NCBI GenBank assembly: GCA_049679185.1
Contig: JBAUFO010000083.1
Location: forward strand, 25,958 to 89,957
Direction: 5' to 3'
DNA length: 64,000 nucleotides
From: Candidatus Zixiibacteriota bacterium
GTDB lineage: Bacteria > Zixibacteria > MSB-5A5 > SM1-73
Part shown: piece by piece, positions 9,073-64,000 of the stretch
Layout: each line of letters starts with the position of its first letter
Numbering within the stretch: the first letter of the stretch is position 1
The notes under the pieces: model-generated
The model's database searches: none
Seen by the model: only the letters and a program-made list of their open reading frames with translations
What the model was told of the DNA's origin: nothing
Translations under genes and position numbers: made by a program

Positions 9073-9720
9073 ATGATCGACCTGCATACTCATACCACCC
9101 TGAGTGACGGAGCCCTAATCCCGGCGGAATTAGTGAGGAGAGCGGAGATTGCAGGATATAAAGCCATTGCCATCACGGATCACGTCGACTCGGGAAACAT
9201 GGAGACTATTCTGAAACAGGTGATCAAGGTGGCAGAGGATTTCAACCGTCAGGGTCAACTTAAAGTTCTGCCCGGCGTCGAAATAACTCATATGCCGCCT
9301 CCTTTGATTCCGGACATGGCCAACGCGGCAAGAAAATTGGGAGCAAAGATTGTTGTGGTTCACGGGGAGTCGCCGGTTGAGCCGGTATGCCCGCAAACCA
9401 ACTTCGTTGGTCTGCGGAGCGATATCGACATCCTGGCTCATCCCGGAATGATCACGGAAGAAGAGGTAAAACTGGCAAAGGAGAGGGGAATCTACCTGGA
9501 GCTGTCGGCTCGGAAAGGGCACTGCCTGGCTAACGGCCGGTTAGTTGTGCTGGCAAGAAAATTCCAGGCTAAGCTGGTTATCAACACCGACGCGCATACC
9601 CCTGGAGAGCTTTTTTCCAAAGGTCTCTTGAAAAAGGTCGGCTTGGGGGCGGGATTGACCGAACACGAGTTGGAAGAGGTGTTTCAGAATTCTGCGGAAC
9701 TGGTGAAAAAAAGATTCTGA
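9073..9720 (+). CDS. PHP-domain (polymerase/histidinol-phosphatase-like) phosphoesterase
   Basis: N-terminal MIDLHTHTTLSDGA and an internal ITDH motif, the PHP metal-binding signature. Confidence 0.85.
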   Translation: MIDLHTHTTLSDGALIPAELVRRAEIAGYKAIAITDHVDSGNMETILKQVIKVAEDFNRQGQLKVLPGVEITHMPPPLIPDMANAARKLGAKIVVVHGESPVEPVCPQTNFVGLRSDIDILAHPGMITEEEVKLAKERGIYLELSARKGHCLANGRLVVLARKFQAKLVINTDAHTPGELFSKGLLKKVGLGAGLTEHELEEVFQNSAELVKKRF

Positions 9721-58062: not shown

Positions 58063-58791
58063 CTAATCTATCGTGCTCAAAAGCCTGCCCCACCTGACCC
58101 GATTGGGAAGATGGAGGATATTGTACCCGATATTGTGCGGTACTGATAGAAGCTCTCTGCTGGATACTACGGGGGCATTGGGATCGGGAGCCCAGGACCA
58201 GTGAATGATCATGGCTTTACCCAAAACCAGCTCTCTGGGGAGGAATCCCCAGAAGCGAGAATCTGCGCTGTTGTCCCGATTGTCCCCCATCATGAACAGA
58301 TGACCATTGGGTACCTTAGCCGGCCCGAAATTGTCCCGGACGTCTCTTCCCGGCGACCGGGTATTCGGATCAGTGTATTTTGCCAGAGCGGGATCCTCAA
58401 CTCCTTTTCCGTCGACATACAAAACCTTATTTCTGATTTCAACCGTCTGTCCCTCTACGGCCACACACCTTTTTATGTAGTTGACCTTGGGGTTAAGTGG
58501 ATATTTGAAGATGACGATGTCACCTGGCTTCGGTTCTCTGAGGGCCGGGAGATGAACCGGCAAAAGAGGAACCTTGGAGCCGTAGATGAACTTGTTGGCT
58601 AAAAGAAAATCGCCCACCAGAAGGGTATCCTCCATCGAGCCGGAGGGAATCTTATACGCTTCCACCACCGAACATTTGACGATCAACGCAAAAATCAAAG
58701 CTATGGCGAAAGACTCAACGTACTCCTTCAGCACGGTAAGTGCGGATTTCTTCTCCCTCTTTTTGACCTCTTGCTTTTTCTTCCTGAACAC
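58063..58791 (-). CDS. lepB: signal peptidase I
   Basis: IPSGSMEDTLLVGDFLLANKF (catalytic Ser), YIKRCVAVEGQ (Lys), FMMGDNRDNSADSRFWG. Confidence 0.9.
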   Translation of the reverse strand: MFRKKKQEVKKREKKSALTVLKEYVESFAIALIFALIVKCSVVEAYKIPSGSMEDTLLVGDFLLANKFIYGSKVPLLPVHLPALREPKPGDIVIFKYPLNPKVNYIKRCVAVEGQTVEIRNKVLYVDGKGVEDPALAKYTDPNTRSPGRDVRDNFGPAKVPNGHLFMMGDNRDNSADSRFWGFLPRELVLGKAMIIHWSWAPDPNAPVVSSRELLSVPHNIGYNILHLPNRVRWGRLLSTID

Positions 58792-58967
58792 AGGTTTTCC
58801 TCCGGTTTGATATTTGAGACGCTCATTTTGAGTATACGGTAGGGCAGACCGCTTGGTTTAAGAATATTTACCGGGAGACGACAGGCGGCCGGCAAATACG
58901 GCGATTTTGAATTCTTGCAGACCGTCAGACTTCATGAATATTGAACCGCCAAGTCGGCAATCTGGTA

Positions 58968-58996
58968 TTGACTTGATTGGAGAAAAGTTGTATAAT
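58968..58996 (+). promoter_or_regulatory. near-consensus sigma70 promoter (TTGACT, 17 nt, TATAAT) for the class-V aminotransferase gene
   Basis: TTGACT 58968-58973, TATAAT 58991-58996, start codon 30 nt downstream. Confidence 0.65.
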
Positions 58997-59025
58997 CGCA
59001 TGAATGCCAAAACTGAAAGGCAACT

Positions 59026-60201
59026 ATGGAAAAGCTGATTTATCTTGACAGCGGCGCGACCACCTTTCCAAAACCTGAAGAGGTTTATGTGGCGATGGAT
59101 GAATTCTCTCGCTGCTGCGGAGTCAACCCGGGTCGCTCGGGGTACGATCTCTGCATGGTAGCCGGATCCATGGTCGAGGAAACCCGCAAGCTTCTCACCC
59201 GATTCTTCAACGGAACTGATCCCAACCGTCTGATCTTTGCTTACAACGCCACGGACGCTCTGAATCTGGCCATCTTCGGTTTGCTGAAGGAGGGCGATCA
59301 TGTGATCACCTCCAATATAGAACATAATTCTGTCATTCGGCCGCTCTACCATCTCTACAAGTATGGCGGGGTCGAAGTCGATCATGTCCCCTTTGACGGT
59401 CAGGGATTTCTGGACCCGGACGAGTTCGCCCGGCGTTTCAAGAAGAACACCAAACTGGTTGCGATCAATCACGCCTCCAACGTCATCGGCACCGTGCAGC
59501 CGGTTGGGGAAATCGGACGGCTCTGCCGGGAGCGCGGAATCACCTTTGTGGTCGACTCTGCCCAGTCGGCGGGCAAGATTCCGGTAGATATGGAAGAGCT
59601 TAATATCGACGTGGTGGCTTTCACCGGCCACAAGTCTCTTATGGGACCGATGGGGATAGGCGGACTCTATGTCCGTGAAGGTATTGAGATCCGGCACACC
59701 CGCGCCGGCGGCACAGGCGTGCGCTCGGCCGTCCGCACTCACTTGGACGAATACCCATACCGGCTGGAGTACGGTACCCCGAACCTGCCGGGAATAGCGG
59801 GGTTAAACGCCGGCGTCAAATGGGTGCTTGAGGAAGGGATGTCAACGATCCACGGACGCGAAACAAAGCTGCTCCGTATGTTGAGGGACGGGTTGCGGGA
59901 AATAGAAGGCGTGACCCTGCACTGCCAAGATAATCTTGACAATCACATCGGCATTCTCTCGTTCAATGTGGAGGGGCTGGAGGCAATGGACACTGGTACC
60001 ATGCTGGACGTCGACTACAGCATAACCAGCCGCACCGGCTTGCACTGCGCTCCCCGGGTGCATGAGCAGCTGGGCACTGATAAGATTCATGGATCGGTAA
60101 GATTCGGGATAGGCCCCTTAAATACCGCCGAAGATATCGAAGCCGCCATCAGTGCTGTGGGAGAAATCGCCCGAATTCGTCAAAAGCAGAAGACCTGTTG
60201 A
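59026..60201 (+). CDS. class-V aminotransferase / cysteine-desulfurase-like PLP enzyme
   Basis: LDSGATTFPKP, FTGHKSLMGPMGIGGLYV (PLP-Lys), and a C-terminal Cys in TSRTGLHCAP resembling a desulfurase/selenocysteine-lyase active-site loop. Confidence 0.85.
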   Translation: MEKLIYLDSGATTFPKPEEVYVAMDEFSRCCGVNPGRSGYDLCMVAGSMVEETRKLLTRFFNGTDPNRLIFAYNATDALNLAIFGLLKEGDHVITSNIEHNSVIRPLYHLYKYGGVEVDHVPFDGQGFLDPDEFARRFKKNTKLVAINHASNVIGTVQPVGEIGRLCRERGITFVVDSAQSAGKIPVDMEELNIDVVAFTGHKSLMGPMGIGGLYVREGIEIRHTRAGGTGVRSAVRTHLDEYPYRLEYGTPNLPGIAGLNAGVKWVLEEGMSTIHGRETKLLRMLRDGLREIEGVTLHCQDNLDNHIGILSFNVEGLEAMDTGTMLDVDYSITSRTGLHCAPRVHEQLGTDKIHGSVRFGIGPLNTAEDIEAAISAVGEIARIRQKQKTC

Positions 60202-60237
60202 CTGGTGATATTGACCTTCCGGCCGACCTTTCTCATG

Positions 60238-61587
60238 TCATCTCTCCTTCTTCTCAATCACCAGAGCGTCTGCGAGCACCTCGGACACGGTCTTGATCTC
60301 TACTTTAAGGTCATATTCGCGGTTAAGCTCGCTGAGTTGGTCGATACAGTTGTGACAAGGAGTGACCACGATCTCAGCTCCGGTCTCTCGGATCTGATCT
60401 GCCTTGATCTTGCCTGTCTCCAATCGCCTCTTGGCATAGCGTGTCATGGCTAACTGACCCCCGCCGCCGCCGCAACATAAATTCTTTTCGCGATTCGGAT
60501 ACATCTCCACGAAGTCGGTGACCGCATTGTTGAGAATGTAGCGCTGTTCTTCGATGATGCCGCCCAGGCGCACCAGGTTGCAAGGATCATGAAGTGTCAC
60601 CACTTTCTGATTGCGCGAAGGGTCCAGCTTGATGCGTCCCTGGCGGATATAATCAGCGATGATTTGAATAACGCTTTTGACCTCGAATCTGTCCTCTGTT
60701 GCCATCCACTCCGGCGCTTCCCAGCGATTGGAATTATAGCCGTGACCGCATTCACCCAGGACCAGTATCTTGGCGCCGAACTTAGCCATTGACTCGCGCA
60801 AACGCGATGAAATCAGGGCCGCCGCTTCGTCATCGCCACTGTAAAGGCCATAGTTGGTAACGTCATAGTAGTCGGCTGATACGGTCCAGCTTTCCCTGGC
60901 GGCGTAGAATATCTTGGCAGTAGCCAGAAGAGACAACGGAAAGAATTTCGGTTCGCGCGGGTTGACGGTGTAAAGGATTTTCGTTCCCGGCTTATCGACC
61001 GGCAGATGCGCCTGCGGATCGCCCACCTCCATCTGCAGTTCTTCGCTCAACCACTGGAGTGTATCCAGCCACTCCTCCCGGGGAATGCCCATATTATTCC
61101 CCTTTTCCACGGCGGTGGTCACCGTTGACTGCAGGCCGGGCGGAACAAGGTCGATGGAAGCCAGGCTGGTTCTGGCCATGCGGATTAAACGCGTTATGTT
61201 GATACCCATGGTGCAGTTGAGCGCGCAGCGTCCACACAGGGTGCAGCGTCCGAACAGCGAATCGACCCATTGCTCGACCATCCGGGCATCCAAAGCACTA
61301 TCACCTTCGCTCCCTTTTGCCAGTCCGCCCAGCACGGTCAGGAGCTTTCTGAATACCGAGCTTACCAGTTTGAGTTTGTAGGCCGGGATGGCCTCAGTCT
61401 CTCCGGTGACCACAAAGTAGTGGCAGGAGTCGGCGCAAAGGCCGCAGTTGACGCATGACTGCAGGTTGGCAACTGCTTTGTGGTCAAGCAGTTGCTTGAA
61501 GGACTTAAGGGCCGATTTCAGTTGTTCCGCTTTGAGGCCGCGGATGCGCTCTAAATAAGTATCTTTTGAGTCTACCTCGGATGCCAT
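60238..61587 (-). CDS. HdrD/DsrK-like iron-sulfur protein (two [4Fe-4S] ferredoxin motifs + CCG domains)
   Basis: CVNCGLCADSCHY and CTLCGRCALNC cluster motifs; CCG-domain signatures LCCGGGGG and HDPCNLVR/TPCHNC. Confidence 0.8.
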   Translation of the reverse strand: MASEVDSKDTYLERIRGLKAEQLKSALKSFKQLLDHKAVANLQSCVNCGLCADSCHYFVVTGETEAIPAYKLKLVSSVFRKLLTVLGGLAKGSEGDSALDARMVEQWVDSLFGRCTLCGRCALNCTMGINITRLIRMARTSLASIDLVPPGLQSTVTTAVEKGNNMGIPREEWLDTLQWLSEELQMEVGDPQAHLPVDKPGTKILYTVNPREPKFFPLSLLATAKIFYAARESWTVSADYYDVTNYGLYSGDDEAAALISSRLRESMAKFGAKILVLGECGHGYNSNRWEAPEWMATEDRFEVKSVIQIIADYIRQGRIKLDPSRNQKVVTLHDPCNLVRLGGIIEEQRYILNNAVTDFVEMYPNREKNLCCGGGGGQLAMTRYAKRRLETGKIKADQIRETGAEIVVTPCHNCIDQLSELNREYDLKVEIKTVSEVLADALVIEKKER

Positions 61588-61590
61588 ATG

Positions 61591-62226
61591 CTAAGCTTTC
61601 TTTGAAGGATGAGGAAGCACACCTCTCCGGCCAAAGAACTCGCCGAAGAGAATCCGACTGTAGAAGAAGAAAGCGCAGTGACGAAGTTTCCCGAATGGGA
61701 TGTAAACAAAGATAATGATGGCTACAAAAAGAAATGCCATGTGTACAGTTTCGGTGAAAGTCGATGTTAGAGCCGATAACAGGAAAAGGTCGACCAGAGA
61801 GTTGGCCAGATAGTCATCACCGCTGCTCAAGGACCTCATCTGTGCTTTAAGTATTCTCTTGATGAGCAGCGCCACTCCGCAAACCACGCCGATGAACAGT
61901 AGTATTCGTGCTGCCTGCAGAAACGGTGCAAAAAGTGAAATGTGCAGTACCACCGTTGCCAGAAACAGCATTGCCATCAGTATGCCGACGTGATAAAGGA
62001 TGCCGCCCATATAAGTCCAAATATGTTTGGCAGCGCTCTCCTTTTCCCAGGGCAGCATGCCCGGCCCGAAGGCGTACATAATACCCGCGAACCTGCTGCC
62101 TCGTGGGTGTGCATAGGTCGGTCTCCGGCCGAAGGCGAAAGTTCGCGCGACCAGCAACCTTAGAACGACGAGGCAGAACAGCAGCGAAGCCGCTACACCC
62201 AGTTTCAGTAACGCAAATAGAGACAT
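61591..62226 (-). CDS. NarI-like cytochrome b membrane subunit (DsrM/HdrE-like)
   Basis: 211 aa, 5 predicted TM helices with His residues placed for bis-heme ligation; 3 nt upstream of the HdrD/DsrK-like gene. Confidence 0.55.
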   Translation of the reverse strand: MSLFALLKLGVAASLLFCLVVLRLLVARTFAFGRRPTYAHPRGSRFAGIMYAFGPGMLPWEKESAAKHIWTYMGGILYHVGILMAMLFLATVVLHISLFAPFLQAARILLFIGVVCGVALLIKRILKAQMRSLSSGDDYLANSLVDLFLLSALTSTFTETVHMAFLFVAIIIFVYIPFGKLRHCAFFFYSRILFGEFFGRRGVLPHPSKKA

Positions 62227-62235
62227 TTTGAGGAC

Positions 62236-62556
62236 CTATACACAGCCGTCCGGCTTGGGCAGACCGGCAATCTTACACGCCCCCTTGGCAGGACCTGAGG
62301 GGAATAGTTCGTAAATGCGGCGAAGAGGCAGGCTGGTGGTCTTACAAATGGAACGAACCATAGGCGCTAAGTTGGTTTCCAGGTAATGATTCCGAATGAA
62401 TTCAATGACCGCCCAGTGTTCTGCGGTCAAATCATCGATACCTTCTGCAGCTTTGGCCAAAACCTCCGCAGCCTGTTTATCCCACTGACTGGAATCTGTC
62501 AGAAACCCCTCTTCGTTTAGCTCTAATTTCTTGTCACCGACATCGAGATGAGACAT
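62236..62556 (-). CDS. DsrC/TusE-family sulfur-relay protein carrying both conserved C-terminal cysteines
   Basis: 106 aa ending ...GPAKGACKIAGLPKPDGCV (Cys-x10-Cys-Val, the DsrC arm); conserved HW.VI.F.R..Y core. Confidence 0.85.
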   Translation of the reverse strand: MSHLDVGDKKLELNEEGFLTDSSQWDKQAAEVLAKAAEGIDDLTAEHWAVIEFIRNHYLETNLAPMVRSICKTTSLPLRRIYELFPSGPAKGACKIAGLPKPDGCV

Positions 62557-62746
62557 AGGCCTACTTCCTCCGGTTAAATTTGCTGACCGGGAAGATAATG
62601 CAACTTAACCTGCTTGGCAAGGGAATTCCGATTGGGCGAATACCAGCGGCGGACTGCCGACGGTGGACGGCGGACAGAAGCACAAGCAAACAGGGGTGGT
62701 TCCGCGCAAGACTTAGATAAATTCCGCACTTTCGCGACAAAACAGC

Positions 62747-62775
62747 TTGACACAGAGGCGTTGGAGGGTTATTTT
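62747..62775 (+). promoter_or_regulatory. sigma70 promoter (TTGACA, 17 nt, TATTTT) upstream of the HEPN gene
   Basis: TTGACA 62747-62752, TATTTT 62770-62775; ~125-nt leader to the ATG at 62905. Confidence 0.5.
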
Positions 62776-62904
62776 ACCCCCGGTCCTGCAGGAACACACG
62801 CTTGCAAGGTTGTCAGGGAGGTTGCTATGGGGTACTCTAAACTCGCTTTGGGGTCTTACGCGGGTCAGTATAATCAATGTTAGCGAGCACATAATTGAAG
62901 CATC

Positions 62905-63693
62905 ATGGACGCAGTTGATATTTCACAAGTTCTGCGCGACGCAGAGAACGCTTTGCGTGATTTCATAGCGTTTAAGCTCCAGAAATCTATCGGAGATAAT
63001 TGGATTGAACTATGTGGGGTATCACCGGAGCGGATCGAGAGGTGGAAAGAGCGAAAGGAAATTGAAGAAAAGAAGCAGGTGGCTGGAGTAGTTGAAGAGC
63101 GGTTGATCTACTACGCGGACTTCTACGATCTGATAACAATTCTGAAGCATCGGTGGTCGGAAGACTTTTCGGAGGTTTTTGGAAAATGGAAAGACATGGA
63201 GGTGTGGCTCAGCACGCTCGAAGATTTACGTAATCCTGAAGCTCATAGAAGAGAGCTACTTCCTCACCAAAAGCAGCTAGCCGCTGGTATAGCAGGTGAG
63301 ATTAGAACCCGGATCGTTCGTTATCGTAGCAAGGACGTAGCGGTCGACAACTACTTCCCCCGAATTGAGAGCGCTCGCGACAACCATGGTAATCTGTTTA
63401 CTGCCGGCGAGTCAAGTATGTTCGACACAGGCACCGTTCTTCACCCTGGTGACGACTTGGAGTTCATCGTGACTGCCTCCGACCCCTATGGTCAGAAGTT
63501 ACAGTACGGATTCGGGGTTGGCAGCGATCATCCCTGGCAAGACAGCAACCAGTTTGCTCTGAGGGTTACAGCCGATCACATTGGCAAAGACTTTTACGTC
63601 TCTTTGCGCATCCAGAGTGAGCGCGATTACCATGCGCACAGTTTCTGTGATGACTTTGTTGAGTTCGTCTATACAGTTCTACCGACGAGCTAG
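62905..63693 (+). CDS. HEPN-domain protein (Swt1-like Rx4H RNase motif) with a C-terminal beta-rich domain of unknown function
   Basis: N-terminal ~120 aa: ALRDFIAFKL ... W ... LEDLRNPEAHRRE (R-x4-H HEPN motif). C-terminal ~140 aa without recognisable motifs. Confidence 0.55.
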   Translation: MDAVDISQVLRDAENALRDFIAFKLQKSIGDNWIELCGVSPERIERWKERKEIEEKKQVAGVVEERLIYYADFYDLITILKHRWSEDFSEVFGKWKDMEVWLSTLEDLRNPEAHRRELLPHQKQLAAGIAGEIRTRIVRYRSKDVAVDNYFPRIESARDNHGNLFTAGESSMFDTGTVLHPGDDLEFIVTASDPYGQKLQYGFGVGSDHPWQDSNQFALRVTADHIGKDFYVSLRIQSERDYHAHSFCDDFVEFVYTVLPTS

Positions 63694-63928
63694 AACAGCC
63701 GCAGGTGGGCCACAGGTTTGCTGTGGGGTGGTTGGCAGCAGTAATCAACTTTCATGACCAGCCCGAAACACTACGATGATTCAGACACACTGCGGTTTGT
63801 AACGTTCAGTTGCTGTTTGGTTATGCCCGAAGCGATGCCTTTTTCGCACGCGTGTCATACAGCACCTGAAAGAGCATTTGAGATGTTATAAGCATCAATA
63901 TAAGCAATGTTCTTCGTGAGGGAAGAAG

Positions 63929-64000
63929 ATGACACCATACGAAATCGTCACTTCGCTCATCGCAATCGTCGCGCTCGTAATCTCGACCGCGTCGCTCATC
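63929..64000 (+). CDS. 5' end of an ORF encoding a hydrophobic N-terminus (partial; continues past the window end)
   Basis: GAGGGAAGAAG ATG, then MTPYEIVTSLIAIVALVISTASLI. Confidence 0.3.
   Translation, partial: MTPYEIVTSLIAIVALVISTASLI

Follow-up and report, generated by a model that had tools for sequence, protein, structure and literature searches.

How is a ribonuclease (RNase) of the HEPN superfamily held in check when no antitoxin gene accompanies it? RNases of this kind serve as effectors in Cas13, Csm6, several abortive-infection (Abi) systems, and many toxin-antitoxin (TA) pairs, and to our knowledge the restraint of solitary HEPN proteins lacking an antitoxin is understood for only a few. 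The question is raised here by a gene in a stretch of 64,000 nucleotides from Candidatus Zixiibacteriota (assembly GCA_049679185.1, contig JBAUFO010000083.1, positions 25,958 to 89,957), hereafter called the window. The open reading frame (ORF), at 62905-63693 on the + strand, begins with ATG and encodes 262 amino acids (aa), exactly as an earlier sequence-only reading of the window had delimited it. Its product joins an N-terminal Swt1-family HEPN domain to a C-terminal immunoglobulin (Ig)-like domain, and we refer to it as HEPN-Ig. By analogy, we give about an even chance to the view that it is a self-contained sensor-effector RNase with a design like that of the Schlafen-Ig protein pSlfn5. 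The family makes a compact case, with one highly conserved gene and a small Ig-like domain as the apparent sole candidate regulator, so that autoinhibition and trigger sensing are directly testable.

Two domains in one protein

The N-terminal domain (aa 1-145, 62905..63339, + strand) is a Swt1-family HEPN domain with an intact Rx4H site. HEPN_Swt1 (PF18731), the sole Pfam match of the protein, covers aa 10-118 with 40.8 bits against a gathering cut-off of 27.5, so the Swt1-like assignment of the sequence-only reading stands above the family's own threshold. The same part of the protein (aa 10-121) matches positions 65-174 of the 192 in the PADLOC PDC-M34B model (PDLC04592, E = 3e-13), while no match was found in NCBIfam, nor in Pfam to AbiA_CTD or, up to E = 10, to Abi_2. 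An identical protein is recorded in a Zixibacteria metagenome-assembled genome (MAG) as "Swt1 family HEPN domain-containing protein"; the HEPN half is thus already named in public annotation.

The R-x4-H motif proposed earlier is present in LEDLRNPEAHRRE and reads R109-N-P-E-A-H114, at 63229..63246 on the + strand, with R109 at 63229-63231 and H114 at 63244-63246. Both the Arg and the His are retained in 119 of the best 120 homologues, and around the motif the invariance extends to a longer block, RxPxAHRRELLPHQ. Thirty-seven aligned homologues share, without exception, R109, P111, A113, H114, and RRELL, together with ENxLR in helix 1 and YYADF-D. The AlphaFold model of the full protein (mean predicted local distance difference test, pLDDT, 84) consists of helices as far as residue 145 and places the Rx4H motif between helices 95-109 and 120-145. 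This agrees with the features of the HEPN superfamily, an all-alpha fold with a four-helix core and an Rx4-6H motif where the last core helix begins. The sequence-only reading had allowed that the motif might fall outside a HEPN fold; it lies inside the modelled one, and the HEPN assignment holds. With a predicted template modelling score (pTM) of 0.50 for the full-length model, the interdomain geometry is unreliable. The only part with pLDDT below 50 is the invariant segment 65-72 (63097-63120; ERLIYYADFYD), a stretch which, to judge from the model, may become ordered only in a dimer or with a bound substrate or trigger.

By analogy with other HEPN proteins, the domain is a putative endoribonuclease. 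It might instead be a catalytically inert scaffold that binds RNA or protein, as the HEPN domains of eukaryotic Swt1 have been judged inactive (PMC3710099). For the present family we consider this highly improbable, since both motif residues persist within the invariant block in all but one of the best 120 homologues and bacterial members of the Swt1 family have been classed as active (PMC3710099).

The C-terminal domain (aa 146-262, 63340..63690, + strand) spans about 117 aa, not the roughly 140 aa assigned to it before, and the region thought to be devoid of recognizable motifs carries a PKD-type signature, TASDPxGxxLxY. Modelled alone, it forms an eight-stranded beta-sandwich with high confidence (pLDDT 95.6, pTM 0.87), in line with the seven- to eight-stranded sandwiches related to PKD/Big repeats that characterize the PKD/Ig-like superfamily. 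It reaches no Pfam model even at E = 10, and a sequence search of the PDB for solved relatives gave nothing specific (best E 0.13-0.2, spurious). A profile of the domain run against 1.84 billion representative proteins gave 1140 matches at E <= 1e-3, of which 342 reach E <= 1e-10. The strongest are mostly proteins of about 260 aa with the same two-domain architecture, and HEPN_Swt1 was matched by 38 of the 64 mid-length representatives of these hits. Giant proteins (900-6500 aa) likewise contain 6-18 repeats that match the profile core, LRPGDxIxFxxTAxDPxGxxLxY, and in the one that was scanned (P0121) the matching repeats are K319L-like_PKD, PKD_4, Big_9, and Cadherin_5. The C-terminal domain is therefore a divergent member of the PKD/Ig-like superfamily and not a new fold. 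Its earlier description as uncharacterized remains true in that it has no Pfam model of its own, but not as regards its fold.

The two domains differ in their rate of change, the Ig-like domain being the more variable (48% versus 71% mean pairwise identity for HEPN). Along its strands, variable and conserved positions alternate, the loops are hypervariable, and a set of polar residues (D159, D193, S238, R240, H243, and D249) is invariant. By inspection, the 262-aa protein has no hydrophobic N-terminal segment and is therefore presumably cytoplasmic.

The Ig-like domain also occurs without HEPN. Two proteins, P0215 and P0229, contain the whole domain twice in tandem, flanking motifs included, behind an N-terminal hydrophobic segment, and are probably secreted or membrane-anchored. 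These tandem copies indicate that the domain is a module in its own right, employed both inside and outside the cell. A third protein, P0211 (514 aa; contig L058, 8001-9545), has an N-terminal TIR domain, the Ig-like domain with its flanking motifs at 184-300, and a tail of about 200 residues that is mostly without annotation. Its TIR assignment is solid at the sequence level, with 69-74% identity to the TIR_2 domain of many TIR-STAND-TPR proteins, several of them named Pyrinomonadaceae, and an Mrr restriction gene lies two genes away.

A solitary gene with a sporadic, horizontally acquired distribution

We scanned 185,579 species genomes, one per species, with two invariant peptide patterns, a procedure that gives a lower bound, and found the HEPN-Ig family in at least 48 of them. 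The 48 loci include Planctomycetota, Desulfobacterota, Verrucomicrobiota, Chloroflexota, Pseudomonadota, and Bacteroidota among others, and also span Actinomycetota, Cyanobacteriota, Bacillota, and Armatimonadota. Among the carriers are culturable species, namely Pandoraea captiosa, Taibaiella koreensis, Piscinibacter caeni, Franzmannia qiaohouensis, and Fodinibius sediminis. Two archaea of the Methanocellales carry a homologue with 41% identity. All of the best 120 homologues are full-length proteins and, leaving aside the closest few, their identity to the window protein is 54-61%; where a source is named, it is Zixibacteria, Cyanobacteria, Planctomycetes, Deltaproteobacteria, or Patescibacteria. 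Across phyla the gene shows no synteny, so that the syntenic housekeeping family envisaged as a counterargument in the sequence-only reading did not emerge.

At 42 loci, the guanine-plus-cytosine (GC) content of the gene lies on average 7.5 points below that of its flanks, the difference reaching about 25 points at three of them. The gene sits at different sites in three MAGs of Gallionellaceae, of which two bear the name Gallionella sp., and one Rubrobacter MAG has two copies. The ORF is split at two loci, where sequencing error is possible. More distant homologues (27-33% identity) are found on seven actinobacterial plasmids, some adjoining insertion sequence elements or transposases. No match was found in INPHARED, in the viral contigs of IMG/VR, or in PHROGs. 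The distribution is thus sporadic, and the gene has been acquired horizontally.

The organization of the gene is solitary. An all-against-all BLAST of flanking ORFs of at least 70 aa from the 48 loci revealed no shared neighbour, and among flanking ORFs of at least 35 aa from 50 loci none was conserved, except between the syntenic relatives L004 and L047; a conserved partner gene was rejected on this basis. One large cluster in the latter comparison was noise from spurious ORFs in high-GC DNA. Neighbour genes, called crudely as the longest non-overlapping ORFs, gave 145 neighbours for 46 loci, and among the 25 most frequent families that were listed no Pfam family occurred more than twice and no PADLOC family more than three times. 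The neighbours are mostly housekeeping genes, including tRNA synthetases, ZnuA, and NADH dehydrogenase; ParE, PIN, Fic, HTH, transposase, type IIG restriction-modification (R-M), and mad2 genes each occur at most three times among the 145. The MNT antitoxin that was to be looked for nearby is found neither in the window nor at the 48 related loci.

The locus in Zixibacteria and its expression signals

Upstream of the HEPN gene, on the opposite strand, lies a gene for a true DsrC (PF04358, 119.9 bits), which had been described as dsrC-like. The gap to this divergent gene measures 348 bp, close to the earlier estimate of about 350 bp. It is followed by an ORF of 211 aa, without Pfam match and probably encoding a membrane protein, and then by a CCG/4Fe-4S protein resembling HdrD/DsrK. 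Together with a signal peptidase-like ORF and a cysteine desulfurase-like ORF, these genes occupy 58063-62556, and their order is preserved in two related contigs, L051 and L053; in L051 the orthologues of the latter two ORFs match Peptidase_S26 and Aminotran_5, respectively. In the unrelated contig L061, a HEPN homologue with 57% identity also has an Aminotran_5 gene 27 bp upstream, probably by coincidence.

Orthologues of HEPN-Ig with 85% (L051) and 73% identity adjoin the same cluster of DsrC, 211-aa ORF, and DsrK-like genes, which indicates that the gene has been inherited in place within the lineage; in all, it is found near dsrC in three related Zixibacteria lineages. What surrounds it differs from one contig to another. 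In L051, a gene for a 111-aa protein directly follows the HEPN gene (9380-9700). The same gene is located about 1.2 kb past the window end in L001 (1929-2264), a Logan contig identical to the window that adds about 1.3 kb beyond its end, and is absent from L052, the contig of the 73% orthologue; its product has no Pfam, PADLOC, or PHROG match. In L052, L053, and L054, a gene for an outer-membrane beta-barrel lies downstream, and an aldehyde dehydrogenase gene and a frameshifted RiboL-PSP-HEPN gene lie upstream. The latter (L052 5499-6139; L053 9360-10000) matches PF18735 with 33.1 bits in a spliced translation and has the motif RRHHIAH; it lies directly upstream of the 73% orthologue, so that two unrelated HEPN genes are adjacent at this variable spot. 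Because the flanks turn over around it, the HEPN gene is the stable element of a small variable accessory site.

The membrane-protein gene seen to run off the window does so: it starts at 63930 on the + strand, and contig L001 completes it (63930-64000, continued at L001 1208-1687) as a protein of 159 aa with a hydrophobic N-terminus, in which the uniformly hydrophobic residues 9-24 can be read as one transmembrane helix. PADLOC matches neither of the two genes downstream of the HEPN gene, but the 159-aa protein matches phrog_6723, a family of unknown function, end to end (E = 1e-17), and otherwise no family above cut-off. Its homologues (26-32% identity) are carried by 19 plasmids, 14 of them conjugative, of Klebsiella, Moellerella, Legionella, and Marinobacter; one adjoins a SIR2 gene and another lies between type I restriction and Abi_C (HEPN-type) genes, and the 159-aa gene may be an uncharacterized defence-island gene. 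Since it lies 236 bp from the HEPN gene on the same strand and its plasmid relatives have such neighbours, one could picture a two-gene system, in which HEPN-Ig would be the effector and the putative membrane protein a sensor or second effector. We consider this very unlikely. The gene is missing from all four orthologous contigs (L051-L054), so that it is no partner, none of the 48 other loci shares it, and the neighbours of its plasmid homologues are unrelated to the HEPN-Ig family; the absence at orthologous loci largely refutes the proposal. Because L051 lacks it, we regard the 159-aa gene as a separate insertion downstream of the HEPN gene.

A putative sigma-70-like promoter, TTGACA-17-TATTTT at 62747..62775 (+ strand), agrees with the consensus at 10 of 12 positions and would precede a leader of about 125 nt, as noted earlier. 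A consensus scan of 1.8 kb returned three such sites versus 1.5 expected by chance, and the site alone is therefore weak evidence for a promoter. It is kept in L051 as TTGACG-17-TATCTT, and the site plus the leader are 88.5% identical there, versus 86.1% for the coding sequence. The alignable sequence of L051 begins just upstream of this site, and further upstream identity is 52%, with no alignment. Upstream of the site, the dsrC-HEPN intergenic region contains about four repeats of the 7-nt unit CGGCGGA (62647-62675); at this place L051 has about 110 bp of inserted sequence that includes two perfect palindromes. An upstream ORF of 89 aa (62614-62883, TTG start) gave no Pfam match and, its final 18 codons excepted, is not kept in L051; beyond those codons it was rejected as spurious.

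The leader (62776..62904, + strand) contains an upstream ORF (uORF) of 18 codons encoding MGYSKLALGSYAGQYNQC before its stop (62828-62883, + strand), which follows GGGAGG at a distance of 5 nt and stops 21 nt short of the HEPN start codon. No clear Shine-Dalgarno sequence precedes the main ORF, and the uORF may provide translational coupling or control. In L051 the uORF is retained, as MLYSKLGLGSYVGQYNQC and a stop, with three synonymous and three non-synonymous codon changes. Leader and uORF are absent from L052, so the leader is not a feature of the family.

This region bears on whether HEPN-Ig might be the toxin of a TA pair whose antitoxin has escaped recognition, as a small protein, the leader RNA, or the 18-codon uORF. 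HEPN toxins are commonly found with antitoxins such as MntA or RnlB (PMC3710099, PMC13000451), and L051 keeps the leader together with the uORF and the Shine-Dalgarno sequence ahead of it. However, no adjacent ORF of at least 35 aa is conserved in the 50 loci, no neighbour family recurs, and leader and uORF are missing from the 73% orthologue. The 7-nt unit is the only repeat detected, with no ToxI-like tandem repeats, and an Rfam scan of the leader returned no match and nothing above E = 0.5, the AbiF-associated RF03085 included. Folding of the leader (z = +1.5) is less structured than that of shuffled controls. An RNA antitoxin or riboswitch in the leader was rejected on the latter grounds, and we judge a TA pair as a whole to be quite improbable.

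Downstream, similarity to L051 persists for about 55 nt past the HEPN stop codon and is then lost. This conserved 3' flank (63694..63745, + strand), the right end of the conserved unit, contains a short hairpin, CCACAG-N5-CTGTGG, which may act as a terminator, with an unexceptional folding score (z = +1.0). The locus, at about 62740-63745, is best explained as a self-contained single-gene cassette, in which the ORF is preceded by a promoter-like site and a leader and followed by the short conserved stretch on its 3' side.

A candidate sensor-effector and its relation to known systems

In HEPN RNases, two Rx4-6H motifs form a composite active site. If HEPN-Ig follows this rule, it would be active only when dimerization joins two Rx4H motifs, and the Ig-like domain would hold the enzyme inactive in the resting state, in which case no antitoxin gene would be needed. 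A trigger, most plausibly an invader protein, would bind the variable face of the Ig-like domain and thereby release or assemble the active HEPN dimer, which would cut cellular RNA, invader RNA, or both, leading to growth arrest. RNase activity, autoinhibition, the trigger, and the role in defence are all what we infer, with RNase activity and dimerization proposed from what is established for HEPN RNases (PMC3710099) and from the example of HepT (PMC13000451). In particular, as an antitoxin is lacking, the protein would have to be autoinhibited, and the Ig-like domain would be the only candidate regulator or sensor. Sensor-like behaviour is suggested by the greater variability of the Ig-like domain, by the alternation of variable and conserved positions along its strands, and by its single fusion to TIR. 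The solitary gene, its horizontal spread, and the precedent of pSlfn5 also speak for the sensor-effector reading.

A broader proposal is that HEPN-Ig represents a widespread type of immune protein in Bacteria and Archaea, receptor and effector in one polypeptide and a HEPN counterpart to pSlfn5, in which the cytoplasmic PKD-like Ig domain senses an invader protein directly and activates HEPN, and that the Ig module can be exchanged between HEPN and TIR effectors, where it replaces a STAND-TPR sensor. We advance this only tentatively. If the Ig-like domain is indeed a sensor, Ig-domain sensing would not be confined to Schlafen but would include HEPN and perhaps TIR effectors. Present defence catalogues, which cover environmental phyla poorly, would then gain a gene characteristic of such phyla (Zixibacteria, Planctomycetota, Desulfobacterota, Chloroflexota, and Methanocellales).

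Several observations weigh against a sensor-effector in defence. Association with defence islands appears weak, as housekeeping genes make up most of the neighbourhood. Among the four long contigs examined throughout, three show mainly such genes, with ribosomal proteins and ProRS, Fur/ZnuABC, and Mur ligase/PBP, respectively, and one of these three has a gene with an NYN RNase domain 63 bp upstream of the HEPN gene; in the fourth, TA-like pairs and a gene for a caspase-STAND protein adjoin it. The HEPN domain, with its mean pairwise identity of 71%, is unusually conserved for a conflict toxin. Instead of an arms-race surface, the invariant polar set of the Ig-like domain might reflect one unchanging ligand, a site for a metal, or contact between the two domains. 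The TIR fusion is known from one single-member cluster and is a lead, not a pattern, and the structural model is uncertain between the domains and poor at 65-72. Finally, the PADLOC match is partial, covering the HEPN part of PDC-M34, which from its naming we take to be a multi-gene candidate, and the partner is absent.

Part of this evidence would suit a housekeeping or stress-response RNase with a role in RNA processing or regulation, in which the Ig-like domain would serve oligomerization or partner binding. Such an enzyme, which would be an ordinary finding, fits the housekeeping neighbours, the very high conservation of HEPN, the invariant polar residues, and the position near dsrC kept in three related Zixibacteria lineages, and there is precedent in eukaryotic Swt1 and Las1, HEPN proteins recruited to core RNA processing (PMC3710099). 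We nevertheless consider it unlikely, since a gene found in at least 48 of 185,579 species genomes, scattered over many phyla and two archaea without synteny, with GC far below that of its flanks in many hosts, with split and plasmid-borne copies, and with different sites in three Gallionellaceae MAGs, would be an unusual housekeeping gene.

Among known systems, HEPN-Ig belongs to the HEPN superfamily and to the Swt1-like family, and lies outside HepT/MntA, ToxIN-like systems, Abi_2, PDC-M34, and pSlfn5, because a feature that defines each of these is missing. Domains fused to HEPN in the Abi2/Swt1 clade are PIN, AAA+ (DUF499), transmembrane, PLD, ParB/HNH, helicase, and STAND, as well as Zn-ribbon, RNase III, CBS-HD, and aegerolysin (PMC3710099). 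Neither "Ig-like" nor "beta-sandwich" occurs in the searched text of the 2013 HEPN census of Anantharaman et al. (PMC3710099), and a literature search on the HEPN-Ig architecture, PF18731, and PDC-M34 found no description of the architecture. Within the Swt1-like family, the present gene stands alone, outside an R-M operon, and adds the Ig-like fusion.

Compared with HepT/MntA, HEPN-Ig is longer, has the extra Ig-like domain, and is without an adjacent or fused MNT in the window and at the 48 related loci. In contrast to AbiD/AbiF (Abi_2) and AbiA, it has no Abi_2 or AbiA_CTD match, no reverse-transcriptase domain, and no RF03085 RNA nearby, and unlike ToxIN-like type III TA systems it has no tandem-repeat RNA antitoxin upstream. 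Its resemblance to PDC-M34 is limited to a partial match to gene B in the HEPN part, the model having no Ig-like domain and the locus no partner gene; PDC systems in PADLOC are themselves unvalidated candidates (PMC11514479). Whereas PKD, K319L-like PKD, and Big_9 domains come as repeats, the Ig-like domain is present here in a single copy, in a protein without a signal peptide by inspection, and has flanking motifs of its own (YFPRIESxRDxxGN and RSxRxYHA...DDxVxFxYxVLP).

The closest parallel is pSlfn5 (RorSlfn5), a proven single-gene defence in which a Schlafen tRNase is followed by a C-terminal Ig-like domain; the latter binds the tail assembly chaperone of phage T5 and sets the specificity, and the tRNA target is likewise proven (PMC13056530). 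Both are single genes without an antitoxin, with an N-terminal RNase (putative in HEPN-Ig) and a C-terminal Ig-like beta-sandwich, and in both the candidate or known sensor diverges faster than the nuclease. The nucleases themselves, Schlafen there and HEPN here, are not homologous, and the relation is therefore an analogy of design and not one of membership.

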